Positions 9,809 through 34,566 of a stretch of DNA of 64,000 bases are shown here, piece by piece. The stretch's first letter is position 1, and every line of letters begins with the position of its first letter. The notes beneath the pieces are model-generated. The model did no database searches, was not told where the DNA came from, and saw only the letters and a list, made by a program, of their open reading frames with translations. Position numbers and translations under genes: made by a program. Source of the DNA: an uncultured Actinomycetota bacterium (GTDB lineage: Bacteria; Actinomycetota; Actinomycetes; Mycobacteriales; CADCTP01); the NCBI GenBank assembly GCA_963714145.1, contig OY970235.1:6737722-6801721 (forward strand). Direction: 5' to 3'.

Positions 9809-9885
9809 CGGGCTGGCTCCCCTGCCGCGGGTAATCGCGGTGCGCGCCGGCCCACGGTCCTGGACGACCTAACCGATCCAGTTGA

Positions 9886-11643
<1,758 letters not shown>

Positions 11644-16401: not shown

Positions 16402-16407
16402 CGTCTC
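16348..16407 (+). repeat. attL core: 60 bp of tRNA-Ser(GGA), from the anticodon loop to 6 bp past the 3' end, identical to 32920-32979
   Basis: cttggaaagcgtgttgggggcaacccctcaagagttcgaatctcttatcctccgcgtctc was read at both positions. Confidence 0.85.
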
Positions 16408-16562
16408 TGACCAGGGCAAACGCCGGCCGTGTGGGGTACGCCGTGTCCCACGGGTGCCGGGTCCGTCTCAGTTCCCGTCTCAGTCGGAGGTTGGGTGCCT
16501 AGACCGTCCAGCCTCGCTGTGGCCGGCCGCAGGGTCGGAGCACCGTCCCGGCGGAGGCCAGG

Positions 16563-17381: not shown

Positions 17382-17404
17382 CGTCCGCTGTCCGGAGCCG
17401 CGTC

Positions 17405-17795
17405 CAGAATATTTCTCCGACCTGAGCCGCGATGACGCACCGGATCTTGCTGGTCACATGTCGGTAGGGCTTGCCATGCCGGTGTCGGCCCAGCGTATGA
17501 GGGGCATGACGGTGCACTCGGGGACACCGACGACCAGGGAGGACGGTAGCGGCGTTGTGGCGAACGTCGCGCAGGCGGGGCGGCGCGGGACTCGGGTCGT
17601 GCGGAGGAGTCGTTTTCTAGTCGTGGTAGTCGGTGCTGGGGCCGACCGCTTGGCCGGTGGGTGAGGTGATGACCCAGTCGCTTTCGCACCAGAGCGGGGC
17701 GACGGGCTGACGCTCGCGGTCCTGCGCGACGCGGTGGGCGCGCAGAACCTCGCCAGCTCGTCAGGTAGGCCGACGACGCGGCGGCCATTGCCGGA
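17405..17795 (-). pseudogene. remnant of a second tyrosine integrase (C-terminal catalytic part only, frameshifted)
   Basis: About 360 nt align by eye at roughly 70-75% identity with 18480-18850 of the intact int gene (e.g. tcgtggtagtcggtgct, ccggtgggtgaggtga, gctcgcggtcctg). The coding sense is split between two track frames (17454-17957 and 17378-17788). Confidence 0.75.
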
Positions 17796-17822
17796 GGCCG
17801 ACGGTCGAGCGAGTATCAGCAA

Positions 17823-18377
17823 ATGTCGGCGAAGTGTCCCCGTGCGCCCGCTGAGCTCGCTATTGTGATCGGCATGGGCTACAGAATGACTGGCTTCAGC
17901 GCCTTCGGCCTTGGCGTCGAGTGGGAGAAGGTTCCAGGCGACGAAAAGGTGGCACACCGCGTGATCGCCTACCTTGAAAATCGACGGCTATTGTTCGGAT
18001 CGCGCCATTCCAAAGATCAGGACCACTGCGTCGCCTCGGCGATCGAGATTCGCAACTATCTGACGACCGAGCTTGGCTTGACCAAGCAAGGCAGCAGCCT
18101 GTCCATGAGTCTGCGCGCGATTCGGGCGGCCTGCCGGCAGTTCGTGGAGGCAGGTGGGCCGCGCGGACGGAACTTCCTCGGAGACGCGCCCTGGGACGCT
18201 GGGCCCTTTGGTCTCGCTCTCGGCGACCTCCGGACTCTCGTTGGTTGGCAGGTGGCCACGATCGCAGGCGAGTACGAGATCGAGGTCGAGCCCGAACTCG
18301 CCGCGATCATGCCGCCTTCGTTGGACTCTGACGAGGATGACCCGTCGTGGCTACCGGGCTTCGAGGACCAGACGTGA
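17823..18377 (+). CDS. hypothetical protein (no recognisable domain)
   Basis: 184 aa ORF; the start is more likely the ATG at 17874 (MGYRMTGFSAFGLGVEWEKV). Its stop lies 1 nt from the convergent int stop. Acidic C-terminal tail. Confidence 0.5.
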   Translation: MSAKCPRAPAELAIVIGMGYRMTGFSAFGLGVEWEKVPGDEKVAHRVIAYLENRRLLFGSRHSKDQDHCVASAIEIRNYLTTELGLTKQGSSLSMSLRAIRAACRQFVEAGGPRGRNFLGDAPWDAGPFGLALGDLRTLVGWQVATIAGEYEIEVEPELAAIMPPSLDSDEDDPSWLPGFEDQT

Positions 18378-18378
18378 C

Positions 18379-19659
18379 TTAGCTGTCATCGCTTGCACCC
18401 TCTTCTCCGTCGGCTGCGTCTTGAGCCTTGTCGTCCTTCACCGGCCTGGGTGCCCATAGGAGCCCGCCGACCTGCCCCGCGATGTCGTGTCGGACTTGGC
18501 TCGTGATGTGCTGGTAGCGCTTGGCCAGGCCGGTGTCTGCCCAGCCCATCAGTGCCATGACCGCCCGCTCAGGTACACCGAGGATCAGCAGGACCGTGGC
18601 GGCGGTGTGGCGGGCGTCGTGCAGGCGAGCGTCGCGGACTCCGGCGACGCGGAGAAGCCGTTTCCAATCGTGGTAGTCGGTGCTCGGGTTGACCGGCCGG
18701 CCGGTGGGTGAGGTGAAGATCCAGTCGCCGTCGTGCCAGAGCTGGCCGGCGAGCTGGCGCTCGCGGTCCTGTTCGTCGCGGTGGATGCCCAAGAGCTTCA
18801 CCAGCTCCTCGGGTAGACCGATGGCGCGGCGGCCGTTGGCCGATTTCGTGTTGCCGGCTTCCGACCGGATGAGCCGGCGAGCTGGGCAGTAGCCGGCGCG
18901 GTCCCGGTCGCACTTCCCGTCGCAGCCGTGCTCGTACTTCGGACGGTTGCGGCTCCGGCGGACGAAGAGCGACGCGTCGTCGAGGTCGACGTCCGGCCAG
19001 CGGAGGCCGAGCGCCTCGCCCTGACGGAGGCCGAGCGCGAGCGCGACCGCCCAGCGGACACCGTTTCGCCGCTCCGCGGCGGCGGCCAGGATGCGCTGAA
19101 CCTCGTCGACCGTGTACGGCTCGACCTCGGTCTCGGTCAGCCGAGGCGGCTTCGCCAGCTCGGCTGGGTTGATCGTGATATGGCCACGACGGACCGCTTC
19201 GCCGAGCGCGGTACGGATTGTGCGGTGCGCCTGATGGGCCGTGGCCGGCGAGCTGCCCTTGGCCTGCATTCGCTTGTAGAGCTTTTCGAGGTGTTCCGGC
19301 TGGAGCTTGTCGAGGCGGTGCGCGCCCACGCCGGGGATGAGGTGGACGCGGACGGCGACCCGATAGCCAGCGAGCGTGTTCTCCGAGATGGACGGCGCGG
19401 CGATCTCCTCGACCCAGTGGTTCAGCCACTGCTCGACGGTCGAGGGGCGGCCGGGTTTGCGTACGTGGCCGGAGTCGCGCTGCTTCTCCAGCTCGCGCAC
19501 CTTGCGGTACACCTCGGTCCGTGTCTTCGCTTCGACGTGCCGACGGTCCGGCTTGCCGTCGTCGCGCGTTCCCATCGTGACCCGGCCGTGCCACTTGCCG
19601 TCCTTGCCGAGGTAGATCGAAGATGCGCCGTTCGGAGCGCGGCCCTTGTCGCTAGGCAT
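18379..19659 (-). CDS. int: tyrosine-type site-specific integrase
   Basis: 426 aa. N-terminal SAM-like/core-binding domain. Catalytic region LALGLRQGEALGLRW...HDARHTAATVLL...VMALMGWADTGLAKRYQH contains the R..HxxR..Y elements. Confidence 0.92.
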   Translation of the reverse strand: MPSDKGRAPNGASSIYLGKDGKWHGRVTMGTRDDGKPDRRHVEAKTRTEVYRKVRELEKQRDSGHVRKPGRPSTVEQWLNHWVEEIAAPSISENTLAGYRVAVRVHLIPGVGAHRLDKLQPEHLEKLYKRMQAKGSSPATAHQAHRTIRTALGEAVRRGHITINPAELAKPPRLTETEVEPYTVDEVQRILAAAAERRNGVRWAVALALGLRQGEALGLRWPDVDLDDASLFVRRSRNRPKYEHGCDGKCDRDRAGYCPARRLIRSEAGNTKSANGRRAIGLPEELVKLLGIHRDEQDRERQLAGQLWHDGDWIFTSPTGRPVNPSTDYHDWKRLLRVAGVRDARLHDARHTAATVLLILGVPERAVMALMGWADTGLAKRYQHITSQVRHDIAGQVGGLLWAPRPVKDDKAQDAADGEEGASDDS

Positions 19660-19670
19660 GGGGCGGCTCC

Positions 19671-19898
19671 TCAGGCGGCCGGCCGGTCGGCGGCCAGGCC
19701 GCGGAGCCGGTCGAGGAAGGCGGGTAGGGCGTCGGCTGGGATGCGGCGGAGCCGTCCAATTTGGACGGACTCGACTTCGCCGGCCTTGACGAGTGCGTAG
19801 ACGAGGGTGCGGCCGATGCCGAGTTGGTCGGCGGCTTCCTCAATGGTGAGCAGGAGCCGAGCGGGAACGGTGGTGGGCTGGTCGGGGTGCTGGAACAT
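19671..19898 (-). CDS. xis: excisionase-family helix-turn-helix DNA-binding protein
   Basis: 75 aa. LLTIEEAADQLGIGRTLVYALVKAGEVESVQIGRLRRIP is the excisionase/MerR-like HTH_17 pattern. Located directly upstream of int. Confidence 0.85.
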   Translation of the reverse strand: MFQHPDQPTTVPARLLLTIEEAADQLGIGRTLVYALVKAGEVESVQIGRLRRIPADALPAFLDRLRGLAADRPAA

Positions 19899-20144: not shown

Positions 20145-21722
20145 TCATCGCCGGCCTCCGGCGGGCGGTTCTGTGGGTTGTGTGGGTTCTGTGCAGGCGG
20201 GGTGGACCTCGTAGGCCGGCGACGGCGGTCGGCCGCCTTGCGGCGTCGATGCCGGCGGCGGGACGGGCCGGATGTGGCCGTGGTCGACCAGCAGCCCGAG
20301 TGCCGGGTCGAGGTCGGTGACCTTGCGGTACCGGGTACCGCGTAATGCGGCGAATGCGTCGCGGCGGGTGAATCGGTCGGCGCCGGTGCGGGCGATCCAG
20401 TCGAGGACGGCGCGGCCGTCGTCGACGAGGGGATCGGCGCCCATGTGGTCGAAGACTGCGAGCGCGTGGGCGAGGTAGTAGTGGCCGAGCCGGGCGGCGG
20501 CGTCCACTGTGGACGCGGGCACCGGCCTGTTCCAGCCGCTGTCGTGGTGGGTTGCGACGTGCAGGAGTCCGGCGATGCGGACGGTTGCGCCGGTGAGTTT
20601 GGATGCCCAGTCGGCGAGGTGGCCGAGGTCGCCGGTGCCGGCGGCGAGGCGGGGTTCGATGGCGGTTTCGAGGTCGAGGACACGGGCGTCGGCGTCGGGC
20701 GCGAGCGGGAGGACGGCGGGGTCGGTCCAGTCGGCGAGCGCGAGGACCAGGGCGCGGAGGTTGTCCGCGTAGCCGGCGGTCACGGCGGCGGGCGGCGGCG
20801 GGGTGCCGATGCGGCGGCGGCCGACGGTGTTGGCCGGCAGCGAGTAGAGGATGCGGGCGAGCAGTCCGCGGCCGCGGAAGCCGGGCATGCGTGCGATGTC
20901 GACCAGGACTTCGGGTTGGACGGCGAGGCCGAGGGTGAGGGCGGGTTGTTCGACGTGCTCGGCGGGCCGGCCTTTGCGGTCGACGCGGAGCATGTCTCCG
21001 GCGTGGCCCTTGAGGAACACTTCGAGGTTCGGCGCGCCGGAGTAGCGGCCGGCCAGTGTGGTGAAGATGCCGGCCTCGGCCGACAGGACGGCGAGCCGGC
21101 CGCCCTGCTCGGCCAGCAGCGACGCCGCGGCCTCGGGGGTGACGTCGTCGGCGACCAGCCGAGGCAGCACCGGGACATTGATCTCGTCGGCGGCGAGCGC
21201 GGCCGAGGATGCGTCGGCGAACGCGGTCATGCGCGCGTCAGTGGTTGCGGCGTTCTCGGCGGCCTTCGCGGTCCGCTCGGCCCGTGCCCGGGCGACCCGG
21301 GCGGCGAGCTCGGCCTCGACGACCTGCGGGCGGGCCAGCTCGACGAGCGCGGCCTCGGCTGCCAGTAGTGGTGCGGTCATGGCGGCGAAGACCGCCGACT
21401 TGCGGGAGCCGGGCGGCATCGCTACCGCGGTGAACAGGTTGACCGGCTCCCGCCAGCCGGGCCGAACCTCGACCACGGCCCGGCCGCCGGCCGCGGTCGA
21501 AATCGCGGCGAGTGCGATGCAGCCGGCGAGGTCGGCCGGGGTCTGGGTGAACTCGGCGACCGCGGCGACCTGGTCGCCGAGCCAGCCCGGTAGCGCGTCG
21601 ACCGGGAACGGCGGGAGCAGCCGACGAGCGGACAGCGGCACCGGCTCGCCGTCCCATCCAGTGCCGGCCAGCACCCGCAGCGGCCGGCCGGGATCGGCTC
21701 CGGCAGGGTCAAGGGCAGTCAT
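20145..21722 (-). CDS. DUF3987 (YfjI-like) protein, putative replication helicase/loader partner of prim-pol
   Basis: ATG at 21722 (MTALDPAGADPG...) makes an ATGA overlap with the upstream stop. PPFPVDALPGWLGDQVAAVAEFTQTPADLAG...AMPPGSRKSAVF is the DUF3987 signature as I recall it. The 5' part of the track ORF is low complexity and rejected. Confidence 0.7.
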   Translation of the reverse strand: MTALDPAGADPGRPLRVLAGTGWDGEPVPLSARRLLPPFPVDALPGWLGDQVAAVAEFTQTPADLAGCIALAAISTAAGGRAVVEVRPGWREPVNLFTAVAMPPGSRKSAVFAAMTAPLLAAEAALVELARPQVVEAELAARVARARAERTAKAAENAATTDARMTAFADASSAALAADEINVPVLPRLVADDVTPEAAASLLAEQGGRLAVLSAEAGIFTTLAGRYSGAPNLEVFLKGHAGDMLRVDRKGRPAEHVEQPALTLGLAVQPEVLVDIARMPGFRGRGLLARILYSLPANTVGRRRIGTPPPPAAVTAGYADNLRALVLALADWTDPAVLPLAPDADARVLDLETAIEPRLAAGTGDLGHLADWASKLTGATVRIAGLLHVATHHDSGWNRPVPASTVDAAARLGHYYLAHALAVFDHMGADPLVDDGRAVLDWIARTGADRFTRRDAFAALRGTRYRKVTDLDPALGLLVDHGHIRPVPPPASTPQGGRPPSPAYEVHPACTEPTQPTEPPAGGRR

Positions 21723-22930
21723 GCTGCGGCCTGGCCGGGACGGCGCGGCCGGCGGCCACCGGCACGCAGCCCGGACCGGATGGTGCTGGCCGCCTCGGCC
21801 TGGCCCAGCCCGATCCCGACGGCAGCCTGTTCCAGCTCGGCCGTGACGAGGTCGGCGGGCAGAGCGCCACCGGCGACGAGCTGGCCGAGGGCTACCGCGG
21901 CGGTGAACAGGATGCGGTTGCGGCGTCCCTCCGGCGCGGCGGCGACCACGGCGACCTCGCGGGCGACTGCGGCCCGCAGGTACGCGGGCAGCCGGCCGGC
22001 CGCCGGAGCGGGCGCCGCGGGCCGGGGTCGCGCAGCCGGTGCGGTGAGGCGGCCGGCGAGCCAGTCGGGCAGTGGCGCGGCTGGCTGGTCGAGCGCGACC
22101 GTGTACGGACGTCCGTCCACTGTGGAGCCGGAGCCCACGACGTAGCCGCCGTGGCCGCGGGTGTCGACCAGCCAGCCGAGCGCGCCCGCCGTGTTGCCCA
22201 GTCGCGTGCCGGCCGGGGCGGTGAAGTACAGGTGGGTTCCGCCCCGTCCGGTGTGGACGGTGTGGGTGGCGGCCGGGAACGGCTGCCCGGCCTGCTCGGC
22301 AAGGGCCGCGAGGACGTCGGAGCCGTCGTGCACTCCGTCGAGTCGCCACGGCTCCGGCGGGCCGTCATCGGTCTTCGGCTGGTCGAGGTCGACCACGAGC
22401 AGGCCGGACGGTCCACATGCGACTCCGATGCCGTAGCGGCGGGTCGACCAGGCACGGCGGATGCGGTCGCGGTCAGTGGTGGCGCGTGGTTCCCAGCCGG
22501 TGTGACCGTCCCGGCACCAGGGATCGGCGCGGGTGCAGCGGTCGGCGGTGTGGTCGGGGAACGCGGGCCGCTTCGCGTCGGGCCGCAGCGGGAATACGCG
22601 CCAGCCGCGGCCGGCGGCGGCGAGCGCGGCGGCCAGGGCCGGCGCGGTGTGCGGAATGTCGGCTGGCGCGTGCCGGCCAGCCGGCGGCGGCCCGGCCTCG
22701 ACCAGGCCGGCCGCCGTCCAGCCGGCGAGGAAGGCGAGTGCCCCGCCGCGGGTGATCCGCGCGGCTTCGGCGAGGCTGGCGGCGGTGACCGGGCCGCCGT
22801 CGAGGTCGACCAGCGCTCGCCAGGCGCGGTCACGAAGGACGCTCGCGTCACGCTGGGTGTTCGGCGTCGAGGGTCGGTTAGCGGTGCCGGGGCGGGGGGT
22901 CATGACGCCTCCTGAGCCTGTTTCGGGCAT
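21719..22930 (-). CDS. bifunctional DNA primase/polymerase (Prim-Pol), AICE replication protein
   Basis: RGWRVFPLRPDAKRPAF...YGIGVACGPSGLLVVDLD...GGTHLYF...VDTRGHGGYVVGSGS matches the archaeo-eukaryotic primase-like prim-pol N-terminal domain. The start could be 22930 or the GTG at 22903. Confidence 0.8.
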   Translation of the reverse strand: MPETGSGGVMTPRPGTANRPSTPNTQRDASVLRDRAWRALVDLDGGPVTAASLAEAARITRGGALAFLAGWTAAGLVEAGPPPAGRHAPADIPHTAPALAAALAAAGRGWRVFPLRPDAKRPAFPDHTADRCTRADPWCRDGHTGWEPRATTDRDRIRRAWSTRRYGIGVACGPSGLLVVDLDQPKTDDGPPEPWRLDGVHDGSDVLAALAEQAGQPFPAATHTVHTGRGGTHLYFTAPAGTRLGNTAGALGWLVDTRGHGGYVVGSGSTVDGRPYTVALDQPAAPLPDWLAGRLTAPAARPRPAAPAPAAGRLPAYLRAAVAREVAVVAAAPEGRRNRILFTAAVALGQLVAGGALPADLVTAELEQAAVGIGLGQAEAASTIRSGLRAGGRRPRRPGQAAA

Positions 22931-23041: not shown

Positions 23042-25204
23042 TCAGCCGGCGCGCCTGCGGCGGTCACGTTCGGCGACGGCGGCGGCGACGTCCTCGCGGT
23101 GGATGCCCTTGCGGTTGGCGCCCTTGCCGGTGGTCGGGTCGGTGCCCCAGACCTGCCGGCCGGTGGTGACGGCGTGCGGGCGCAGCGCGGCGGCGAGCTG
23201 TTCGGGGCGCCAGCCGAGGTAGACGACCGGGCGCAGCTCGGCGAGCCGTTCGACCACGGTCTCCGACCAGATCTTGCCCTCGGTCACCGGGACCACGGTC
23301 AGGATGTCGTCCAGCAGCGAGGCCGCGGCGAGGTCGGCGGCCTGCTCCGGCTCCTGGCCGAGCGCGTGCCCGGACAGCGTGCCGGCCTGCTCCCGCATGA
23401 CTCGGGCGCGGGCGATGACGCGCTCGGCGGCCGGGCCGTCGATGTAGTAGGAGCGGGTGATCCGCGGGTCGTCGCCTTCCCCGGCGAGGTAGCCGATGCC
23501 GAGGTCCTTGCGGCTGAACGTGGTCGCGCGGATGCCGTTCTTGTAGGCCGAGGTGCCGAGCACCATGTCGTTGGAGAGCTGGCCCATGACCTTGAGGCAG
23601 AACCGGAGGACGGCGTTGTCGGAGATGCCGGTCGGCAGTGACTTCGCGTCCGGCCGCTGGGTGGCGAACATCGGGATGATGCCGGCGGCCGGGCCGCGCC
23701 GGACGAGGTCTTCGGCGATGGCGACCAGCTCGTCCCCGTAGGTCGGGTGCTCGAACCAGCGCTGGCACTCGTCCACCACGATGACGATCGGGTGCAGCCG
23801 GTACGCCTTCATGCCGGCCAGCTCTGGCGTGATCTTGTTCTCCGGGCAGAGGTGGCGCGGTAGGCCGCGGATCACCTTTGCCCGTCGGCGTAGTTCGGCT
23901 TGCAGCTCGCGCATGTCGGCGAGCGCGTAGGCGATGTCCTCGTCCTCGTCGCCGGACCGGTAGCGGTGCGACACCGGCTCCAATGTGGACAGGTCGCCGG
24001 TGCCTTTCAGCTCGTACGGGTGCAGCTCGGCGCGCGGGTCGAGCGCGGCGGCCAGCAGCGCGAGCCGGACGGCGAACGTCTTGCCCATCCGCGGGACCGA
24101 GCCGAACACCATCGAGGCGAACATCAACAGCAGCGTCACCGGCCGGCCACGCTGGTCGGTGCCGAACGGGATCGGCTGGAACAGGTCGGTGCGGCCCGCC
24201 TTGAGCAGCGGCCAGGCCGGCTGCTTGGTCTGCGCCATGTCCCGGTCACCCACCCACAGGACCAGCCGACCCGCGTGCGCCTCGGTCACCGGCTCCGGCC
24301 ACACGCAGCCCAGCGGACGGCGTAGCCCGGATGCGAGCTTCTCCCGCCGCTCGGCGACATCGCCAACCGTTACCCCGTAAGGGAGATCGACCTCGGCGCG
24401 CCATCCGGGGCCGTCGCGGGTGATCGGCGACGGGAACGTGATCCCGCCTCCGCCCTTGGCAAGCGCCTGGTTGATGCCAGCCAGGCCGAGCGAGCCCAGC
24501 GCCCGGACCACCACGTCGGCGGTCAGCCTCGGCGGTGCCGTGGTGACGACGGCCGGGCCGATCAGCGGCCGGTCCTGCCGCCGGCCGGCAGCGCCCAACA
24601 GCGCGACCGTGCCGGCGACGACGGCGGCATTGAGCCATCCGGGCGCGAGCGTCCACAGCGTGAGCGCGGTCGTCGTGGCGACGAGCAGTCCAAAGAGGAC
24701 TGTTCCAATCCGGGTCCGCACGCGCTCGTCCCGACGGCGCAGCAGGGCCATGTAGTCGCGCGGTTCGCCGCGCCAGGCCGAGTCACGGCGCAGCCCGGCC
24801 GACTCCGCGTCGACAGTCCACCGGGCCAGCGCGACGGTTGCTCGGCCGAGGCCGCGCGGCGACTGCCCGGCGAGCTGGGCGCAGTACAGCGGTACCCGTA
24901 CCGCGTGGAACGCCATGGTGTGCCCGGCCCGGTTGGCTGCCCACCGGGCCGCGGCCTTCCGGGTGGCGCGGTCGGTCAGCCACTGCGGCAGCACTGGCCG
25001 GCGCTCGGTCGGTCGCTCCCAGGCCGGCCCGAGGGTCGATGCCGGCAGCGGTTCGGGGTCGACCGGGACGGGCGGGGCGTCCTCGTCGCCCGGGTTGTCG
25101 ACGTCAGCCGGTTCTGCGGCCGGGCGGAAGCGGAGCACGTCGGCCGGCTCCTGGTCGGGCTGGTCGGCGCCGTCGTCATCGACCGGCATCGGGTTCTCGG
25201 TCAT
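23042..25204 (-). CDS. FtsK/SpoIIIE-family conjugal DNA translocase (TraSA/TraB-like)
   Basis: 720 aa. N-terminal TM helices, Walker A GSVPRMGKTF, Walker B IVIVVDECQ. It is the only large transfer ATPase in the element, as in Streptomyces-type dsDNA transfer. Confidence 0.88.
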   Translation of the reverse strand: MTENPMPVDDDGADQPDQEPADVLRFRPAAEPADVDNPGDEDAPPVPVDPEPLPASTLGPAWERPTERRPVLPQWLTDRATRKAAARWAANRAGHTMAFHAVRVPLYCAQLAGQSPRGLGRATVALARWTVDAESAGLRRDSAWRGEPRDYMALLRRRDERVRTRIGTVLFGLLVATTTALTLWTLAPGWLNAAVVAGTVALLGAAGRRQDRPLIGPAVVTTAPPRLTADVVVRALGSLGLAGINQALAKGGGGITFPSPITRDGPGWRAEVDLPYGVTVGDVAERREKLASGLRRPLGCVWPEPVTEAHAGRLVLWVGDRDMAQTKQPAWPLLKAGRTDLFQPIPFGTDQRGRPVTLLLMFASMVFGSVPRMGKTFAVRLALLAAALDPRAELHPYELKGTGDLSTLEPVSHRYRSGDEDEDIAYALADMRELQAELRRRAKVIRGLPRHLCPENKITPELAGMKAYRLHPIVIVVDECQRWFEHPTYGDELVAIAEDLVRRGPAAGIIPMFATQRPDAKSLPTGISDNAVLRFCLKVMGQLSNDMVLGTSAYKNGIRATTFSRKDLGIGYLAGEGDDPRITRSYYIDGPAAERVIARARVMREQAGTLSGHALGQEPEQAADLAAASLLDDILTVVPVTEGKIWSETVVERLAELRPVVYLGWRPEQLAAALRPHAVTTGRQVWGTDPTTGKGANRKGIHREDVAAAVAERDRRRRAG

Positions 25205-25222: not shown

Positions 25223-26023
25223 TCAGGCGGCGACCGGAGCCGGCTCGGCCGGCTGGTCCTGGTCGGTGGTCGGGGCGGTGCGGAGCAGGCCGGCGGCGGC
25301 GAGCAGTCGGCGGGCGCGGTCCGGGCCGCAGCGGGCAGCGGCGGTCGCGCGGCGGATCGGCACCGTGCCGTCCGGCTCCCGCGGCAGCGCTGCCAGTACG
25401 GCGGTCAGCTCGGCATCGGTACGGCCGGCGGTACGGGTACCGGTACGGCCTGGCCGGCGGGTACCGGTACGGCCGGCGGTACGCGGTCGGCGGGGCGTCG
25501 CCGGTGCGGTCCGCTCCCCCGGTTCGGCCGGCTCCGCGGGCGGCTCGACGACAGCCTCGACCGCGGCGGCGAGCGCGGCCCGGGCGGCCGAGGCGATCAG
25601 CGCGCCGGAGGCCATGACCATGAGCCCGTCGACCGCCAGCGGGCCGATGACTGCGGTGAGCGGGTCTTCCCGGTAGTGGGTCAGCAGGCCGGACAGGTGC
25701 CGGTACGACACCACGGCGGCGACCAGCGCGACGGGCAGCAGCCCGACGTACCGCAGCGCCACCCACCGGCGGCCGGCCGGCCACGCGGTCCGGGCGACGA
25801 TCTCGACCACCACGAACAGCGCCACCGGCCAGAACACGGCACCGATCACGGCTCCCGGCTCCGGCGCCCAGCCAGCGGCGGCCGGCGGCAGTCCGGCCGG
25901 CGGCACGAAGGAGTGCGCCACGTTGGCTGCGATCGACACGGCTCCGCCGAGGCCGGCACCGGCGTACGCCCAGCCGCGGCCCCGGCCGGCTCGGCTCGTC
26001 GTCGCCCTGGTCGTCGTGCTCAT
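25223..26023 (-). CDS. DUF2637/SpdA-like membrane protein (spread function candidate)
   Basis: ATG at 26023 (MSTTTRATTSRAG...) makes an ATGA overlap with the upstream stop. Four hydrophobic helices, then a Pro/Thr/Arg-rich tandemly repeated linker (RTAGRTGTRRPGRTGTRTAGRT). Confidence 0.6.
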   Translation of the reverse strand: MSTTTRATTSRAGRGRGWAYAGAGLGGAVSIAANVAHSFVPPAGLPPAAAGWAPEPGAVIGAVFWPVALFVVVEIVARTAWPAGRRWVALRYVGLLPVALVAAVVSYRHLSGLLTHYREDPLTAVIGPLAVDGLMVMASGALIASAARAALAAAVEAVVEPPAEPAEPGERTAPATPRRPRTAGRTGTRRPGRTGTRTAGRTDAELTAVLAALPREPDGTVPIRRATAAARCGPDRARRLLAAAGLLRTAPTTDQDQPAEPAPVAA

Positions 26024-26436
26024 GCCGCATCTCCGATCTGGTCGGGCGCGCCGGGTTCGTCGGCGCAGTCGAGGCACTCGCCGAGCGAGCGCGGGATCAC
26101 GTAGCTGGCGACCCGCCCGCAGGTCGGGCAGGTGCGGCGAGCCGAATCGGCCTTCGCCAACGCGATGAGCTGGGCCACGGTCGGCTCGCGGCGGGGCGCG
26201 GCCAGCTCGACCCGGTACAGCAGCGCGAACCGGGTCCGGGACTGCCGCCGCGGTGAGTACCGGCGCGACGTCCAGCAGACCTGCCCAGCCGCCGGCTGCC
26301 CGGCGGGCCGCAGACCTGCGGCAGCGAGCTGGCGACGGGTCATCAACCCGTCCGGCGCCATCCGCCAGGGCCACGTTGGCAGCCCGCCATGCCGGGTGCC
26401 CTCCGGGTCGTGGTGCGCCCGGTAACCGCGGCTCAC
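26020..26436 (-). CDS. RRQRL-motif-like zinc-ribbon protein common in AICEs
   Basis: GTG at 26436 makes a GTGA overlap. GLPTWPWRMAPDGLMTRRQLAAAGLRPAGQ... followed by CPTCG..(x19)..CLDC. Family name recalled from memory. Confidence 0.55.
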   Translation of the reverse strand: MSRGYRAHHDPEGTRHGGLPTWPWRMAPDGLMTRRQLAAAGLRPAGQPAAGQVCWTSRRYSPRRQSRTRFALLYRVELAAPRREPTVAQLIALAKADSARRTCPTCGRVASYVIPRSLGECLDCADEPGAPDQIGDAA

Positions 26437-26966
26437 CGCTGGCCCCCGACCGCCGGCAGGACCGCCCGGACGAGCGCGCGGACGGCGGCGTCGCGGGTGT
26501 GGAAGCCGTCGCCGTGCCCGGCGGCATCGCCCCACGTTCCCCACCGGAATCGGAGCGCGCCACGGTCGGTCCAGGTCCGTTCGACCAGGCCGAGCACGTT
26601 GCCGTCCCGGTCGGTGGCGAGCCATTGGTAGGCGTCCTCGGCCCGCCCATACAGCCACGCTTCGACGTGCACCAGCGTCCGGCCGACCCGCTCGGGCGGT
26701 ACCGAGGCCGGGTACCTGCGGGTGCCCGAGGTCGAGACGGCCAGGGCCGGCCGGTGCTCGGCCGGGACGTCGCGGGCGGTGTCGTAGCCGTGCGCGCCGG
26801 GGTCGTCGGTGGCCGGCGTCCACGCGGCCAGCTCGATGACCTGCCGGCAGGTCCAGCAGATCAGCTCGACCCGGCGGGGCCGCTGGTCGGCGAACACCGG
26901 CTGGTCGATCAGCGCCGACCAGCCCCGGCACGCAGCGTCGCGATGCTCGACGAGAGTCAGGCTCAT
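26433..26966 (-). CDS. hypothetical protein
   Basis: 177 aa. ATG at 26966 makes an ATGA overlap with the GGDEF gene stop. No motif recognised. Confidence 0.5.
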   Translation of the reverse strand: MSLTLVEHRDAACRGWSALIDQPVFADQRPRRVELICWTCRQVIELAAWTPATDDPGAHGYDTARDVPAEHRPALAVSTSGTRRYPASVPPERVGRTLVHVEAWLYGRAEDAYQWLATDRDGNVLGLVERTWTDRGALRFRWGTWGDAAGHGDGFHTRDAAVRALVRAVLPAVGGQR

Positions 26967-27688
26967 GCCGCACCGCCGACCCGGCGAGCGCCGGCCACCG
27001 GCGCTACTGCGGTGTCGCGCAGCCGGCCGGCGGGGCGCCGTGGCGGCGGGACCTGCGCCGGCTCCTGGTCGAGGTCGGGCGCGACCCGCAGCCCGCCCCC
27101 GCCGCCCTTGGCCGCGTACATCGCCACATCCGCGGCGGCCAGTGCGGCAGCCAACCCGGCCGCCGGCACGACAGCAGCGCACGGCACCGTCGCGGCACCG
27201 ACGGACGCGCCGACCGCCAACTCGACCCCACCGACCACGTACGGGGCGGCCAGGGCCGCGCTCACCCGCTCGGCGACGGCCAGCGCCGCAGCTACGGCGG
27301 CGTCCGGGTCGGCCGGCAGCCCGGGCAGCAGGACGACGAACTCGTCCCCACCGAGCCGGGCGACCGTCACCCCCGGCCGGCCGGCTGCCGACAGCCGCCG
27401 GCCTACGGCGGACAACACCTCGTCGCCCGCGGCGTGCCCGTAGCGGTCGTTGACCGGCTTGAACCGGTCCAGGTCGACCAGCAGCACGCCCACGCGGCCG
27501 GCCCGGCCGGGGCCGAACACCTCGTCCGCCGCGGCGGACAGCCCGACCCGGTTGGCCACCCCGGTCAGCGCATCCGTACGCGCGGCCCGGCCGGCGGCAG
27601 CCGCGCGCCGGACAACCGGCCACCGGCCAGCCACCCAGCCCAGCACCGGACCAGCAGCCACAGCCGCGTACGCGGCGACGGCCGTCAT
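26963..27688 (-). CDS. GGDEF-domain diguanylate cyclase (one N-terminal hydrophobic helix, no sensor domain)
   Basis: TDALTGVANR, LLVDLDRFKPVNDRYGHAAGDEVL, ARLGGDEFVVLL, ADVAMYAAK. The metal and substrate motifs are intact. No RxxD I-site was seen upstream of GGDEF. Confidence 0.88.
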   Translation of the reverse strand: MTAVAAYAAVAAGPVLGWVAGRWPVVRRAAAAGRAARTDALTGVANRVGLSAAADEVFGPGRAGRVGVLLVDLDRFKPVNDRYGHAAGDEVLSAVGRRLSAAGRPGVTVARLGGDEFVVLLPGLPADPDAAVAAALAVAERVSAALAAPYVVGGVELAVGASVGAATVPCAAVVPAAGLAAALAAADVAMYAAKGGGGGLRVAPDLDQEPAQVPPPRRPAGRLRDTAVAPVAGARRVGGAA

Positions 27689-27996
27689 GCCGCACCGCCC
27701 AACGTCTGCCCGCCGGCCGGGTCGCCGACGGTGAATGTCGGGCGCGGGTCCGGGTCGGGCGACACGAGCGCAGTGGGCCGGCCGCCGTGCATCAGGTCGT
27801 CATGGGTGCCGGCGAGCTGGCCGGCCTCGGCCGGCGGGAACGGGCCGGCGTGCAGCTCGCAGGCCGGGCAGTCGAGCACCACGAGCCGCGCCGGCCGCAG
27901 CGCCGGGCGGGGCATCACGTAGCCGGCGGCGAACCGGGGCGCCGGGTCGGCGCGTCGGGTCTGGGCGGGTGGTGGCGTGCGGAAGCGGGCAGCCAT
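27685..27996 (-). CDS. hypothetical protein
   Basis: ATG at 27996 (MAARFRTPPP...) with AAGGAAAGG upstream. Its stop overlaps the GGDEF start (ATGA). Contains a CPAC pair. Confidence 0.45.
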   Translation of the reverse strand: MAARFRTPPPAQTRRADPAPRFAAGYVMPRPALRPARLVVLDCPACELHAGPFPPAEAGQLAGTHDDLMHGGRPTALVSPDPDPRPTFTVGDPAGGQTLGGAA

Positions 27997-28104
27997 GATG
28001 GGCGCGCCTTTCCTTGGTGGGAGCCAGGAGGGGTGTTGTCGGGCCGCCCGTGTCTTCAGCACGGGCGGCCCCCAAGCGGAGGGCCGGAGCGCGGTCGCGG
28101 CGGC

Positions 28105-28320
28105 TCAGTTGCTGGCCTGCTGGAGCAGGCTGACCACGAGGTCGGTGACCCAACTGATCAGCGCGACGAGCATCCCGGCGACCTTCGCCATCGCGGCCTT
28201 CCAGGACTCCGGGTCGTTCCGCGCCCACATGACGAGGCCGACCAGGACGCCGAACAGGACCACGACCTTGATGGCGCCGGTCAGCGCGTGCACCGCGCCG
28301 CCGACCATCTTTTCGATCAT
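28105..28320 (-). CDS. small two-TM membrane protein
   Basis: 71 aa with two clear hydrophobic helices. Confidence 0.5.
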   Translation of the reverse strand: MIEKMVGGAVHALTGAIKVVVLFGVLVGLVMWARNDPESWKAAMAKVAGMLVALISWVTDLVVSLLQQASN

Positions 28321-28398: not shown

Positions 28399-28704
28399 TC
28401 AGGCCGCCGGCCGCTCGCGGTCCGCCCGCCGCGCCGACCGGCGCTCCTCGGCGCTGAGCCCACCGACCACGCCATGCGTGAGCAGCGGCCCGAACGTCGC
28501 CAGGCACAGCGCCGTCACCGGGCACGCCGCACAGACCGCCTTCGCCACGTCCGGCGACTGGCCCTTCTCCGGGAAGAACACCTCGGGGTCGACCTGCGAG
28601 CACAACGCCGACTCCCACACCTGCCGCACCGCGTCCGCATGCGTGCGGACCGCCGGGAACAGCGCCGCCGCGGCGGCCACCGCCCGTCCGTTCACTGCCG
28701 TCAT
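28399..28704 (-). CDS. WhiB-family transcriptional regulator
   Basis: C-x(n)-C-x2-C-x5-C cysteine pattern (ALCSQVDPEVFFPEKG...AKAVCAACPVTALCL) followed by GVVGG and a basic tail. Confidence 0.85.
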   Translation of the reverse strand: MTAVNGRAVAAAAALFPAVRTHADAVRQVWESALCSQVDPEVFFPEKGQSPDVAKAVCAACPVTALCLATFGPLLTHGVVGGLSAEERRSARRADRERPAA

Positions 28705-28725
28705 GACTCGACCCTTCGTCCCGTT

Positions 28726-28797
28726 GATCTAGATTGACCTAGGCTAACCTAGGTCAATCTAGATCACAATGATGCCGATGCCGATGACCTAGGTCAT
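28726..28797. promoter_or_regulatory. operator-like palindromes in the divergent whiB / gntR intergenic region
   Basis: Perfect 18-4-18 palindrome GATCTAGATTGACCTAGG-ctaa-CCTAGGTCAATCTAGATC at 28726-28765. A second site, ATGACCTAGGTCAT at 28784-28797, shares the core TGACCTAGGTCA. Confidence 0.7.
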
Positions 28798-28810: not shown

Positions 28811-29182
28811 GTGGCCGTGACCCCCAACGACCCCCGACCGCCCTACCTCCAGGTCGCCGACGACCTGCGGGCCGCCATCACATCCGGCCGGTACGCGCCG
28901 GGCGAGCGGCTGCCCTCCGGCCGGGACCTCGCCCGCGAGTACGGCGTCGCCCTGATGACGATGCAGCGCGCGCTGAGCGCCCTGGCCGAGGAGGGCCACG
29001 TCGCGCTCTACAAGAGCCGCGGCGCCTTCGTCCGCTCGGCCGAGCCCGGCGACGGCGCCGAGACTCGGCCGACCCTCGCCGGCCTGGCCCGGGAGGTAAG
29101 CGACCTCCGCGCGACCGTCCAGGCTCTCGAAGGGCGGCTCGACCAGCTCGAACGACCCAAGCGCGGCCGGTCCGGTGCCTGA
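28811..29182 (+). CDS. GntR-family transcriptional regulator (KorSA-like)
   Basis: PPYLQVADDLRAAITSGRYAPGERLPSGRDLAREYGVALMTMQRALSALAEEGHV is a GntR wHTH. Short coiled C-terminal tail. Confidence 0.85.
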   Translation: MAVTPNDPRPPYLQVADDLRAAITSGRYAPGERLPSGRDLAREYGVALMTMQRALSALAEEGHVALYKSRGAFVRSAEPGDGAETRPTLAGLAREVSDLRATVQALEGRLDQLERPKRGRSGA

Positions 29183-31330: not shown

Positions 31331-32575
31331 CTACTGTCCGCCATGCGACACGACATAAGGAGGCCGCGCTTGGGTTCGGCCATACGGGTAGCGATCCGCG
31401 ACCGTTGACAGATACCGATCGACCGCTTCGATGTCTCGGAAGTGCTCGTGCTTATAGTTCGGAAAGTTGTCCACTCGCGGCTTCTTTGTAACACTCAGTC
31501 GAACATCCTGAAACGGAATGGGATCTGAAGGCAGTGGCCCCGCACCGGAGAGAACGAGGCACATCACCTGCTGGGCGTCGGTTCGTGTTGTCAAATTGTA
31601 TATTCGATGCATCCCATCAATTATCACCAATGTACCATCGGGCTGCCGTTCAACAATTGGCGGCAGAACCACCGTGCGATTGCCGCTGCCCTCAACTCGA
31701 CACGGCTCAAAGAACTCTAATCCGAACCGTTCATATCCCTCAAGGAGAGGGGAACCCTTAGCAACGTTCGCGGCCTTTACGGTGCGACAACATGAGTATA
31801 GCGACGCACAAGAAACCATTTCGATAGAGATCGAATTTGTAGTCAAGCGACTGTAGTGCGGAATTCGCGACAGAATATGACGGACTTCGTCCGCATCCAA
31901 TACCAAGCGATCCAAGATCACTCCCGGCGGGAGAGTCTCCCAGACTGAATCGAAAAGCTGGTGCAACATGGCGATGTAGCTCATGTCCCGCCCAGGGAGG
32001 TAGCGGCGAGCATGATAGTCAAATAGGCTGTCCGTGCCGGCCTCTCCTTCAATTAGAGCAATGCGCTGCTTCGGGTGCTTGGTCACGGTAAGCGCAGTTC
32101 CATTGTCAAGGCTAGTCTTCGTGTCGACGACCAGACCCCGCAGCTTTACCATATCTCCGGTGTAGTACTTCACCTGCACGCCGGCCCCGAAAAGAACCCG
32201 AACCTGCTCTAGCAGAATAGGCGTAGAAGGCCACCTACAAAGAACGCGAATTACTACCCCTAGCTGAGTCCGCTCAAGAATCGGATTCTTACTACTCTCC
32301 GCCCAGGAAACATCACCGGCAAAGACCGCCACGGATGAATCCGCCCGGGTGAGGAGCGCGCGCCAAGCCAAGTCGACCGTTCGCTTGCCGTTAAACACGT
32401 TTGCGTCACGGTGGAAAATCTGCACGAAGACCAGCACAGCAAAGGCCGCGAAAGAAATACCGATAAGCAGATAGGACACGGTCGACTGAACGTTGACCAA
32501 CTTGTCAAAAGACATTCCAGTAATACCGATAACAATGCTCGCCCATTGGATGATGTTGGCAACCTTACGGGTCAT
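31331..32575 (-). CDS. low-GC cargo protein: N-terminal 2 TM helices, unassigned central domain, C-terminal ParB/Srx-like (DGxHR) domain
   Basis: ATG at 32575 (MTRKVANIIQW...) with GGAAGG upstream; the track ORF allows a start at 32668. TM helices IIQWASIVIGITGMSF and VSYLLIGISFAAFAVLVFVQIF. C-terminal PPIVERQPDGTLVIIDGMHRIYNL. Composition is clearly A/T-richer than everything around it. Confidence 0.7.
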   Translation of the reverse strand: MTRKVANIIQWASIVIGITGMSFDKLVNVQSTVSYLLIGISFAAFAVLVFVQIFHRDANVFNGKRTVDLAWRALLTRADSSVAVFAGDVSWAESSKNPILERTQLGVVIRVLCRWPSTPILLEQVRVLFGAGVQVKYYTGDMVKLRGLVVDTKTSLDNGTALTVTKHPKQRIALIEGEAGTDSLFDYHARRYLPGRDMSYIAMLHQLFDSVWETLPPGVILDRLVLDADEVRHILSRIPHYSRLTTNSISIEMVSCASLYSCCRTVKAANVAKGSPLLEGYERFGLEFFEPCRVEGSGNRTVVLPPIVERQPDGTLVIIDGMHRIYNLTTRTDAQQVMCLVLSGAGPLPSDPIPFQDVRLSVTKKPRVDNFPNYKHEHFRDIEAVDRYLSTVADRYPYGRTQARPPYVVSHGGQ

Positions 32576-32919
32576 CAGCCTTCCACTTCTCAGCATGCCA
32601 TGAACCAGCCCAAGCCAGGATTCACCCTCATCAAGGTGATCGAACCGAACCCCCGTTCGCCGCCACACCCTTGGACCTGGGTGACTCTAGCGTCAGTTCT
32701 GCTACCTCGTCGGTCGCCCTCACCTGATCAGCCCGAGCGATGGGGGGATCGTCGGCGTCTCCAACGCTGCTCGCCTGCCACCTACGCCACACCTCGTCGG
32801 CCGGTCCGTCTCAGTTCCCGTCTCGTTCGTCTCAGTCCACTGGCGGCCGGACAGGACCGCGGTTGGCCGGCCAGCGCTTGCCAGCACGAGACGGACCGCC
32901 ACGGACGGCGCGGAGCAGA

Positions 32920-32979
32920 CTTGGAAAGCGTGTTGGGGGCAACCCCTCAAGAGTTCGAATCTCTTATCCTCCGCGTCTC
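32920..32979 (+). repeat. attR core (exact 60-bp copy of the tRNA-Ser(GGA) 3' part; no tRNA 5' half)
   Basis: Identical to 16348-16407. Confidence 0.85.
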
Positions 32980-33279
32980 CGATCAGGCACGATGCTCAAT
33001 CCTTGGACCGCTGCGATCCTTGGAGCGCGAGCCCGTCTCAGTTGAGCCGACGGCACACCAGCAGTCTCGACGTGCTCGGCACTCGTGACCCGCGGGCGTC
33101 ACGGCCGGCTAGCGGCGGTGTCGGTGGCGGGCCGATGACCTGCCGCCGAGTGCCAGCGTCCGGTCGTCGCCGTCGACTGGTGCTCCACCCGGCCGCTCTA
33201 TCCCGGTTTGCGAGGTTGTGCTGGCGGCCCGGCGCGGCCGGGCTGTCGTCAGCGCGAGCCGGTGAGGCATCCTGGGTGG

Positions 33280-33597
33280 GTGAGTCGGTATGCGGAGGCG
33301 AAGCCATACGCGGTGCCGAGGTCGCTGTCCGACCTGACCGGGCCGACTGGCGGCACCGTCGTGCTGCCCCGACACATCGATTGGGGCCCCGCATATGTGT
33401 ACGACCTCGCAGATGAGTCAGATCTGGCTCTTCTCTACGAGCGGGTGATCCGGGAGGCCCAGACCCCTGATGATCTCACCGCCTTCCTGGACGGGGCGAC
33501 GCTGCGCCGGCTGTGGCCCACGCTGATCGTTCCCCGGCCGGCCCGCGCCAGGTGGGAGGCACGTTTCGAGGAACTGGCCCACCAAGCGGTCGCGTAG
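33280..33597 (+). CDS. putative antitoxin partner of the AbiEii-like nucleotidyltransferase
   Basis: GTG at 33280 (VSRYAEAKPYAVPRSL...). Its TAG stop overlaps the GTG of the downstream gene (TAGTG). No domain recognised; the call is by position only. Confidence 0.4.
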   Translation: MSRYAEAKPYAVPRSLSDLTGPTGGTVVLPRHIDWGPAYVYDLADESDLALLYERVIREAQTPDDLTAFLDGATLRRLWPTLIVPRPARARWEARFEELAHQAVA

Positions 33598-34253
33598 TGG
33601 ACGAGTTCCATCAACGCCTGATCCGGATCGGCTTGGACGCACTGGCCGTTGACGACGGCTACGCGCTGGCCGGCGGCTACGCCGTCCAGGCACACCACTT
33701 CATCGACCGCCTCAGCGACGACGTTGACCTGTTCGTGCCCATAGAACGCAAGCATGAGATGCCGACCGCGACTGCTCGAATCATCGCAGCATACGACCAG
33801 GCCGGGCTTCGGGCGCAGATTCGCCAGCACGCCGATACCTATGTACGCCTCGATGTCACCGATCCGGCGATCGGCCGTACCGTCAAGGTCGAACTCGTCG
33901 CAGAATTCCTCATGAATCCACCCGTCCCGTCCGATCTCGGCCCCGTCCTGCACCCAGACGACGTTGCCGCTGGAAAGCTTGAAGCGCTGTTCACCCGCGC
34001 CGAGGTCCGTGATTTCATCGACGTGGACGCCCTACTGCGGGGCGGATACAACCGGAGCCAGCTCATCGAGCTGGCTAAACGGCGCGACGCGGGCTTCGAT
34101 GAATCAGTCCTCGCGGACATGTTTGCGAGCCTGTACCGTCTCAACGATCGCCAGTTCGCCGTCTACGGGATAGACGCAGCCGCCATCCAGGAGATCCGCG
34201 ACCAATTCAAGAGCTGGCAACAAGATATCCGCGACCGACTCAAGAACAGTTGA
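33597..34253 (+). CDS. nucleotidyltransferase AbiEii/AbiGii-family toxin (DUF1814)
   Basis: 218 aa. ALAGGYAVQAHHFIDRLSDDVDLFV (NTase G..(x)n..DxD) and the C-terminal helical region are typical of type IV TA toxins. Confidence 0.75.
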   Translation: MDEFHQRLIRIGLDALAVDDGYALAGGYAVQAHHFIDRLSDDVDLFVPIERKHEMPTATARIIAAYDQAGLRAQIRQHADTYVRLDVTDPAIGRTVKVELVAEFLMNPPVPSDLGPVLHPDDVAAGKLEALFTRAEVRDFIDVDALLRGGYNRSQLIELAKRRDAGFDESVLADMFASLYRLNDRQFAVYGIDAAAIQEIRDQFKSWQQDIRDRLKNS

Positions 34254-34424
34254 CGACCAGCCATCGCTCCTGCGGCGATGCGGAGTGCGGGCGCGAGCGG
34301 CAACCGCGTGCGTCTCGTTTGCCGTCTTGTTCACGGCCGTTCAGACGGGTGCCGGCGGGTACGTCCGGGGCGCCGCAACGAACCAACGGGCCCAGCCGAA
34401 CCGGGCGGAACGGACACCGGCAGA

Positions 34425-34482
34425 CTTGGAAAGCGTGTTGGGGGCAACCCCTCAAGAGCTCGAATCTCTTTTCCCCGCTCCC
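34425..34482 (+). repeat. decayed third copy of the tRNA-Ser(GGA) 3' part
   Basis: cttggaaagcgtgttgggggcaacccctcaagagCtcgaatctcttTtccCcgc; a few substitutions relative to 16348-16407. Confidence 0.8.
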
Positions 34483-34566
34483 CTGACCAGCACGAACGCC
34501 GAGAGCCGGCCGCCGAGCGGGTAGTTTGAATCGCATGTACATCGCCCACAGGGAGCTGCGATAACC

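Follow-up and report, generated by a model that had tools for sequence, protein, structure and literature searches.

Small genes for GGDEF-domain proteins have been on record in the integrative and conjugative elements of actinomycetes (AICEs) since the 2008 review of te Poele et al., which marks them as shared among pSAM2, pSE211, AICESco5349, and AICESare1562 (PMC2440964). Here we describe a gene of this class in a 64-kb window (the whole stretch of 64,000 nucleotides that was analysed, contig OY970235.1, positions 6,737,722 to 6,801,721), where a 16.6-kb AICE integrated in a tRNA-Ser gene carries, on the minus strand at 26963-27688, an open reading frame (ORF) for a predicted short GGDEF diguanylate cyclase of 241 aa. 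Like the four published genes, it is a small GGDEF gene in a tRNA-integrated conjugative element, and the published AICEs and the window element alike have an integrase and excisionase (Int/Xis), a GntR regulator, and an FtsK/TraB-type transfer gene; the gene set of the window element is the AICE set described in the review (PMC2440964). In the initial annotation of this stretch, a finding that GGDEF genes are a common, described AICE component was to count against its reading, and they largely turn out to be one, with four elements so marked in 2008 (PMC2440964). The gene class has thus been known since then, and the window gene is a new example, not a new kind. What is new here is the precise cassette behaviour of the gene, seen through a natural pair of sibling elements with and without it, and a junction sequence that doubles as a coupling signal.

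The four published genes were compared by description, and members of the same protein family are carried by two pSAM2-type elements (L091 and L092 among our comparison loci) and by a Salinispora locus (L090). The window element differs from the pSAM2-type AICEs in its backbone, with a Prim-Pol/DUF3987 replication module in place of RepSA, and in the position of the GGDEF gene, which in the window lies upstream of the transfer gene and after a WhiB gene, whereas in the pSAM2-type elements it lies between the spd genes and repSA. The proteins differ as well, the window protein having 241 aa against 179-183 aa and carrying a C-terminal RRPxxRLRD motif that is missing from the Streptomyces forms.

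A further point of comparison is CdgD (SCO5345, vnz19760, and ssfg_02343), a stand-alone GGDEF protein without an RxxD motif that is encoded in an operon with genes of unknown function and is a confirmed cyclase in S. coelicolor (PMC7911125). The window protein is likewise GGDEF-only, lacks RxxD, and belongs to an operon with genes of unknown function, a likeness that concerns architecture. The 2008 review places SCO5329 inside AICESco5349 (PMC2440964), and the number SCO5345 falls within the span SCO5329-SCO5349, so we infer from the two papers taken together that CdgD is itself a gene of AICESco5349. In publications CdgD has been treated as a host enzyme of cyclic di-GMP (c-di-GMP) metabolism and not as a mobile-element gene, and the window differs further in that its host is not a Streptomyces. 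Overexpression of the cdgD orthologue of S. ghanaensis arrests development (PMC7911125). Our literature search found no paper that links such cyclases with pocks or with the biology of AICEs. Also on record is pCdgG, a GGDEF-only protein encoded on a plasmid. [quoted passage not shown] PMC10672970 is a further source on such cyclases. These and the island-borne Vibrio cyclases are ICE-carried like the window gene and add to the host c-di-GMP pool, but DgcK and DgcL are variable-region cargo of Gram-negative ICEs of the type IV secretion system (T4SS) kind, have sensor domains, are uncoupled from the transfer operon, and act in an unrelated host signalling network of biofilm and motility.

In our reading, to which we assign a probability of roughly 60%, ORF 26963-27688 encodes a predicted catalytically competent, sensor-less c-di-GMP synthase and is a conserved, dispensable accessory gene of the tRNA-Ser-integrated AICE. 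Judging from its overlaps with its neighbours, the gene is translationally coupled into an operon that would run into the FtsK/TraB-type transfer gene.

The protein matches the Pfam GGDEF profile (PF00990) over residues 37-197 with E=4.4e-32 and a score of 111.5 bits, where the cutoff is 23.8, the match spanning positions 2-158 of the 161 in the profile; it also matches the NCBIfam profile TIGR00254 with E=4.6e-29. The translation contains the motifs D39xLT, N80-D81-x-x-G-H85, and G113GDEF117; the metal- and base-binding residues D72, K77, N80, H85, D89, R111, and K194 are all present, and most catalytic positions, GGDEF included, are invariant in a 40-member family alignment. The slot of the I-site, at -9 to -6 from GGDEF, reads RPGV, and RxxD is missing in 40/40 family members. 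AlphaFold2, run with the family alignment, returned a model with a mean pLDDT of 89.8, consisting of a single helix at residues 2-36, a standard GGDEF fold at 37-202, and a low-confidence disordered tail that includes the sequence RRPAGRLRD (217-225) and a short helix at 223-226. This model leaves no space for a sensor domain, so the description of the protein as sensor-less is correct; Pfam, the translation, and the AlphaFold2 model together bear out the initial annotation of a short GGDEF protein with intact motifs, one N-terminal helix, and no RxxD. The top Foldseek matches were PleD, YfiN, and WspR (E about 1e-14, rmsd 2.3 A), and sequence matches to solved cyclases in the PDB were to MorA, YfiN, and PleD. 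From work on PleD and the Hypr-GGDEF enzymes, we take D89 and N80 to be the base-specifying positions of enzymes that make c-di-GMP. A cGAMP-type product of the Hypr GGDEF kind was considered and rejected, given Asp89 at the guanine-specifying position. Relative to its counterpart in the sister element L087, the gene has a dN/dS of 0.25, against 0.23 for the DUF3987 gene and 0.20 for the RRQRL gene in the same comparison, and is thus under purifying selection similar to that on core genes.

One feature of the active site departs from the usual pattern. The AKxxGRN motif reads AKGGGGG here and AKRAGGG in close relatives, so that a run of Gly stands where the phosphate-binding GRN would follow the conserved Lys. 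Together with the failure to obtain soluble S. ghanaensis CdgD (PMC7911125), this replacement would fit a degenerate, non-catalytic GGDEF protein that acts as a receptor or scaffold. We regard such a role as improbable, because the remaining catalytic positions are mostly invariant across the 40 members, the S. coelicolor CdgD is reported to be an active cyclase, and the protein has no I-site with which to bind the product as a receptor would.

The regions on either side of the catalytic domain are also informative. The longest Foldseek alignments, spanning about 200-210 residues with the N-terminal helix included, were to the stalk-plus-GGDEF enzymes SiaD (7e6g) and DgcB (6ttr), at 24-26% sequence identity. 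The coiled-coil stalk of SiaD and DgcB dimerises the catalytic domains, and SiaD needs its partner SiaC. The window cyclase differs in having no SiaC homologue with it, and in that the first 20 residues of its helix are hydrophobic and followed by an Arg-rich stretch, so that this segment may be a membrane anchor. At the other end, the tail (residues 199-241, window 26963-27094) carries the motif RRPxxRLRD, which is invariant in 10/10 of the closest relatives, turns up again as RPxxR(L/M/I)RE in proteins of Micromonospora and Salinispora, and is lacking in the Streptomyces AICE subfamilies. The motif joins RxxxR- and RxxD-like arginine patterns in an enzyme without a canonical I-site.

A search of 5.8 billion proteins retrieved about 10 nearest relatives, all short GGDEF-only proteins at 50-81% identity, and a profile search placed these in a large GGDEF-only family with lengths of 179-247 aa, whose members come from Micromonospora (226 aa, for the most part on contigs of 40-90 kb), Salinispora (225 aa), and Streptomyces (183 aa and 204-211 aa). 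AICEs or conjugative plasmids make up 10 of the 11 sampled contexts of family members; in these contexts, then, the short GGDEF-only family is found almost exclusively on actinomycete conjugative elements. Three of the loci (L002, L087, and L088, from metagenomes and a metagenome-assembled genome) are sister AICEs with the architecture of the window. The pSAM2-type Streptomyces AICEs L091 and L092 have the order Nudix, GntR, FtsK, DUF2637, SpdB, two further genes, GGDEF, one further gene, RepSA, Xis, and Int. The metagenomic locus L001 has Nudix, GntR, GntR, and GGDEF followed at a distance by DUF2637 and then by a gene whose product is 39% identical to the FtsK-like protein of the window; the end of the contig truncates this L001 gene, for which no Pfam annotation is recorded. 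In the metagenomic locus L003, HTH_17, GGDEF, WhiB, and RRQRL genes precede a T4SS coupling protein. The Micromonospora plasmids L084 and L086 have sigma factor, Lsr2, GGDEF, two further genes, and in part RRQRL, ahead of a type IV coupling protein and FtsK; the Streptomyces plasmid L085 has a relaxase, the Salinispora arenicola chromosomal locus L090 has GntR, extracytoplasmic function (ECF) sigma factor, Lsr2, and GGDEF ahead of FtsK, and the 5-kb contig L089 was uninformative. In L084 (6758-8558), L086 (6695-8558), and L090 (8821-10678), the GGDEF gene is coupled behind genes for an ECF-type sigma factor and Lsr2, a different conserved regulatory trio. In L085, a plasmid of 42.8 kb, the GGDEF gene is followed (7893-11042) by genes for HIT-domain, nucleoside 2-deoxyribosyltransferase-domain, and NUDIX proteins, a neighbourhood that looks like a nucleotide-metabolism cluster. 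A scan of a genome collection with back-translated ARLGGDEF and AAADxAMY patterns, which proved too generic, gave 80 loci with ordinary sensor GGDEF genes from many phyla. A phage origin was considered and rejected, as phage-database matches were weak and came from Gram-negative or Bacillus phages, yet seven GGDEF PHROGs exist.

This distribution bears on whether the gene is ordinary cargo (a moron), i.e., a passenger that benefits the host or is merely tolerated, that has no role in transfer, and that sits in the operon simply where an in-frame insertion is tolerated. Presence and absence of the gene do vary among sibling elements, and AICE cargo is diverse (PMC9513070). Against this, the same short GGDEF family occurs in at least five AICE or plasmid backbones with different integrases, replication modules, and transfer modules, the GC content and dN/dS of the gene match those of core genes, and the evident cargo of the window element lies elsewhere, in low-GC DNA near the att sites. 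On balance, we find a cargo explanation hard to credit.

The window gene is the second of five head-to-tail minus-strand ORFs, namely 27996-27685 (orf103), 27688-26963 (GGDEF), 26966-26433 (orf177), 26436-26020, and 26023-25223. Reading of the sequence and ORF translation confirmed the four internal 4-nt overlaps that had been annotated, ATGA at 27685-27688, ATGA at 26963-26966, GTGA at 26433-26436, and ATGA at 26020-26023, as well as a further ATGA overlap at 21719-21722 between the Prim-Pol and DUF3987 genes. Such overlaps are commonplace in elements of this kind, accounting for the majority of junctions in L001, L003, L084, and L086 alike. All five ORFs have a third-position GC content (GC3) of 0.88-0.93, with the third-position excess of real genes of this genome, within a window whose GC content ranges from 0.62 to 0.78. 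The beginning of the tract at 25223 stands as annotated; its other end had been placed at 28062, which corresponds to a GTG-extended ORF, and the ATG at 27996 is better supported by the Shine-Dalgarno sequence AAGGAAAGG and by a start shared with the sister elements.

The first gene of the tract, orf103 (27685-27996, GC3 0.90), is of unknown function and has homologues with a conserved start region in L087 and L097. The gene after the cyclase, orf177 (26433-26966), is also of unknown function, with no family match in Pfam, NCBIfam, or PHROG and with homologues in sibling AICEs and phage contexts. Two phage-like contigs carry such homologues at 46-54% identity (L093, 7833-8366, and L095, 1061-1642), with DpdA and a methyltransferase, or a phage integrase, as neighbours. 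Since these relatives in sibling AICEs and phage contexts occur without GGDEF, orf177 appears to be a general mobile-element gene and not a partner of the cyclase. A role as dedicated cyclase effector was accordingly rejected, orf177 having no homologue in the other element types and its own relatives lacking GGDEF. The fourth gene (26020-26436) encodes an RRQRL-motif zinc-binding protein (NCBIfam NF041638, E=1.8e-38) and accompanies the GGDEF gene in L002, L003, L084, and L087. The last gene (25223-26023) encodes a membrane protein in the position of Spd genes that is weakly DUF2637-like (Pfam E=0.0014, under the curated cutoff); its homologues adjoin FtsK in L001, L087, L091, and L092.

The junctions on either side of the GGDEF gene are where the with/without comparison becomes possible. 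The window contains exactly two copies of the 15-mer TCATGCCGCACCGCC, one at 26963-26977 and one at 27685-27699, i.e., at the downstream and upstream flanks of the GGDEF gene, respectively, and 100 shuffles gave no match to it. On the coding strand the 15-mer reads GGCGGTGCGGCATGA, the motif being GGCGGTGCGGC-ATGA (the junction is also written GGnGGTGCGGCATGA), and it was aligned with the corresponding junctions of L087 and L097. A copy at 26020 matches it at 13/15 bases, and the upstream proteins end in LGGAA, VGGAA, and IGDAA; these repeats, including the related copy and the shared G(G/D)AA endings, had been recognised in the initial annotation and were recovered here, with the junction at 26433 and the C-terminus of orf177 (GGQR) departing from the motif.

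In the sibling AICE L097 (ENA ERZ1756611 NODE_722, 4895-5793, compared with window 26433-27996), the GGDEF gene is absent. The order is otherwise that of the window, with WhiB, the 71-aa gene, orf103, orf177, RRQRL, DUF2637, FtsK, and Prim-Pol at 65-76% identity, and the fused orf103/orf177 junction, ctcGGCGGTGCGGCATGAgcc, consists of one copy of the 15-mer. In contrast, the same 15-mer flanks the cyclase gene in the window, L087, L002, and L088. The single copy at the fused junction of the GGDEF-less L097 indicates that the 722-bp gene acts as an in-frame cassette, and the architecture of L097 indicates that it is dispensable for the basic architecture of the element. Identity also changes partner along the tract: in orf103, the window has 75% identity with L097 against 54% with L087, in orf177 it has 84% with L087 against 69% with L097, and in FtsK the pair L087-L097 stands at 85%. 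The three sibling elements are thus mosaic, which gives no direction to the gain or loss of the gene.

The junction motif also reads as a translational signal. Its GGnGGTG is complementary to the 3' end of 16S rRNA in the manner of a Shine-Dalgarno sequence, the duplex energy with the anti-Shine-Dalgarno sequence at the four internal junctions being -8.5 to -9.7 kcal/mol against a same-operon background of -4.6 +/- 2.8. In frame, the motif encodes Gly-Gly-Ala/Val, which accounts for the shared protein endings. Both properties, together with 16S pairing better than at about 90% of background positions and the pattern GGnGGTG-N4-5-(A/G)TGA at most coupled junctions of unrelated elements, could mean that the repeated junction is merely a convergent coupling signal, uninformative on gene shuffling. 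We find this explanation unlikely, as the exact 15-mer is limited in the window to the two GGDEF flanks and has the same placement in L087, L002, and L088, as L097 has a single copy at its fused junction, and as similarity switches partner across the junction. The junction thus appears to have two roles, coupling stop and start by a Shine-Dalgarno-like signal and, in its quality of short direct repeat, allowing the gene to be gained or lost in frame. The modular shuffling suggested earlier gains support from the single 15-mer of L097 and the mosaic identities, with the correction that the motif is partly a Shine-Dalgarno-like signal; the alignment of junctions across related elements proposed at the same time gave the flanking copies in L087 and the single copy in L097.

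The region upstream of the tract suggests how the operon may be controlled. A WhiB-like regulator (28399-28704, minus strand; Pfam Whib E=1.7e-14, PHROG WhiB) and a short GntR-family (Kor-type) regulator (28811-29182, plus strand; Pfam GntR E=2.4e-17) are encoded divergently, with a 531-aa helix-turn-helix protein also encoded divergently to WhiB. Between WhiB and GntR lies a 42-bp perfect palindrome, TGATCTAGATTGACCTAGG ctaa CCTAGGTCAATCTAGATCA (28725-28766, inverted repeat I1, 19-nt arms, 100% complementary), with an extra half-site at 28785-28794 (I7). The palindrome is a candidate operator, probably of the Kor type. With the operon downstream of this divergent region and its palindrome, transcriptional repression is likely, and the initial expectation of a probably constitutively active cyclase was not upheld. 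Between WhiB and the tract lies a small gene of 71 aa from its ATG (28105-28320, minus strand, from the ORF list), which is kept in the sister elements and shares 69% identity with its 71-aa counterpart in L087. The stretch that separates this gene from orf103 contains, just upstream of orf103, a GC-rich hairpin (28041-28071, inverted repeat I5) whose 12-bp arms are 100% complementary and enclose a 7-nt loop; it has no T tract and is a possible terminator or attenuator, which would split the leftward transcription unit.

The element itself is an AICE by gene content and att repeats, its transfer being predicted from its genes, and the att repeats in tRNA-Ser, integrase, Xis, Prim-Pol/DUF3987, FtsK/TraB-like translocase, and GntR regulator agree with the AICE operon proposed at the outset. 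The integration target is a tRNA-Ser(GGA) gene found by ARAGORN (16317-16402, plus strand), whose 3' part serves as attL (repeat 16340-16415). A 76-nt copy of this part at 93% identity (32912-32987, plus strand, repeat family D1) is attR; the two share an exact 24-mer (32951-32974 in attR), none being expected by chance. On the minus strand follow a tyrosine integrase (18379-19659; Pfam Phage_integrase E=5e-21 plus SAM-like N-terminal domains), an excisionase-type HTH_17 protein (19671-19898; Pfam E=1.9e-11), a DUF3987 protein of the replication module (20145-21722; E=4e-111), whose start overlaps the stop of the Prim-Pol replication protein (21719-22930; E=2.6e-44), and the main transfer gene, for an FtsK/SpoIIIE-like (TraB-type) DNA translocase (23042-25204; PHROG 1358, E=3e-25), which has a strong Shine-Dalgarno sequence, GGAAGGAG, and no Pfam match at E<=0.01. 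The integrases of the window and L087 (14633-16006) are unrelated at 27% identity, with transfer and replication genes at 68-88%; the integration module has thus been swapped between the two.

Low-GC cargo lies at both ends of the element, near the att sites. At 31331-32668 (minus strand), a low-GC gene encodes a 445-aa protein with an inactive-HKD nuclease domain (E=3.5e-14), a ParB-CE match (E=1e-4), and a very weakly SLATT_6-like N-terminus (E=0.3), which has the look of a protein for conflict or defence. A 1.5-kb remnant (32987-34492) with an AbiEii toxin gene (33513-34253, E=2e-16) is bounded by a third att copy, which is degraded (34417-34492, 71% identity) and suggests that elements have accreted in tandem at the tRNA-Ser gene. 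The interval from attL to the integrase (16415-18379) contains extra genes, one for a 272-aa protein whose D...ECK motif resembles that of restriction endonucleases (16563-17381) and one for a DUF6650 protein (17823-18377), as well as a fragment (17614-17744) that is 81% identical to part of the integrase gene (18661-18791). A 27-nt repeat (GGTCCGTCTCAGTTCCCGTCTC...) at 16460-16486 and 32803-32829 occurs close to each att site without being in register with it; its copies may be arm-type binding sites of the integrase.

Several points weigh against our reading of ORF 26963-27688 as a competent c-di-GMP synthase acting from within a transfer operon. The equivalent of R446 of PleD, a second phosphate-binding residue, is missing from the aligned sequence. 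Deletion of cdgD in S. venezuelae and S. ghanaensis had no developmental phenotype (PMC7911125), and CdgD-FLAG was barely detectable. A consensus scan of the operon region found no sigma-70 promoter and no T-tract terminator; the operon structure is thus deduced from the gene overlaps, with the hairpin at 28041-28071 and the palindrome at 28725-28766 completing its limits. The GGDEF-less L097 shows that the gene is not needed for the basic architecture of the element. Finally, a scan of all element proteins for BldD-, RsiG-, and PilZ-type motifs recognised no c-di-GMP receptor, giving only low-specificity matches, none of which was used.

With these points in mind, the mechanism that we would propose for the synthase runs as follows. 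The N-terminal helix would tether the cyclase, dimerise it, or both, and control would be mainly transcriptional, through the GntR/Kor-type repressor and its palindromic operator, rather than by a ligand. Synthesis of the cyclase would then accompany that of the transfer and spread functions, once repression is lifted or the element enters a recipient, and its c-di-GMP would feed host circuits such as the BldD-type developmental repression of mycelial actinomycetes, keeping the mycelium vegetative, as it is when conjugation and intramycelial spread take place. In sporulating actinomycetes c-di-GMP acts as the master switch of development, and, to our knowledge, conjugation in these organisms takes place only in vegetative mycelium. 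The control of development by c-di-GMP and BldD is the subject of PMC4151990. The developmental step taken alone, i.e., that the output of the cyclase acts on host development, is a tentative proposal that we would bet against. A Streptomyces-type host, the setting drawn on in the initial annotation, gained no support, as near-identical proteins, which fall in the same 90%-identity clusters, are named 'Mycobacteriales bacterium' and the host flank of the window contains a gene for a methyl-accepting chemotaxis protein (283-1971, minus strand; MCPsignal E=2e-29, HAMP). Mycelial actinomycetes do not usually have a chemotaxis receptor gene, and its presence hints at a host whose spores are motile.

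The c-di-GMP may instead serve local, element-directed signalling and not host development, acting on the FtsK/TraB translocase, WhiB, GntR, or the RRQRL protein, or the cyclase may be switched on by a small stalk-binding partner, as SiaC activates SiaD. The tight coupling of the gene inside the transfer operon and its recurrence beside RRQRL, WhiB, Lsr2, or sigma-factor genes across element types would fit such a role, as would the best full-length alignments of the helix-plus-GGDEF unit, which are with SiaD/SiaC and DgcB, and a tail conserved in all ten close relatives that resembles a docking or nucleotide-binding site. The authors of the S. ghanaensis study themselves proposed a local c-di-GMP compartment for CdgD (PMC7911125). 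In the other direction, no element protein has a recognisable receptor motif, the immediate neighbours of the gene vary between element types, and the tail motif is missing from the Streptomyces AICE subfamilies. We consider local signalling unlikely, a little more so than an action on host development.

Returning to our reading of the gene as an accessory c-di-GMP synthase, a more general form of it can be sketched. Pocks, i.e., the delay of aerial growth and sporulation, have long been seen. Short GGDEF cyclases might be a general 'host-holding' device of actinomycete conjugative elements, which, switched on along with the genes for transfer and spread at de-repression or recipient entry, would raise c-di-GMP, lock BldD-type repression, and hold back aerial growth and sporulation as in pocks, so that the element gains time to spread through the mycelium; in proteins of the window and Micromonospora type, the invariant RRPxxRLRD tail would stand in for the missing I-site as a control element that binds c-di-GMP or docks a partner. 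We offer this as speculation, with long odds against it.

For the most part, the finding carries a known but neglected observation over to a new type of element and records how the gene is gained or lost. The useful additions are the breadth of the association with mobile elements and the cassette junction drawn from sibling elements with and without the gene, and this natural sibling pair, together with the in-frame cassette junction, is a ready experimental design. If these cyclases do act on the developmental switch, they would provide a molecular cause for part of the pock phenotype, and 'host' enzymes of the CdgD type would be recast as mobile-element genes.

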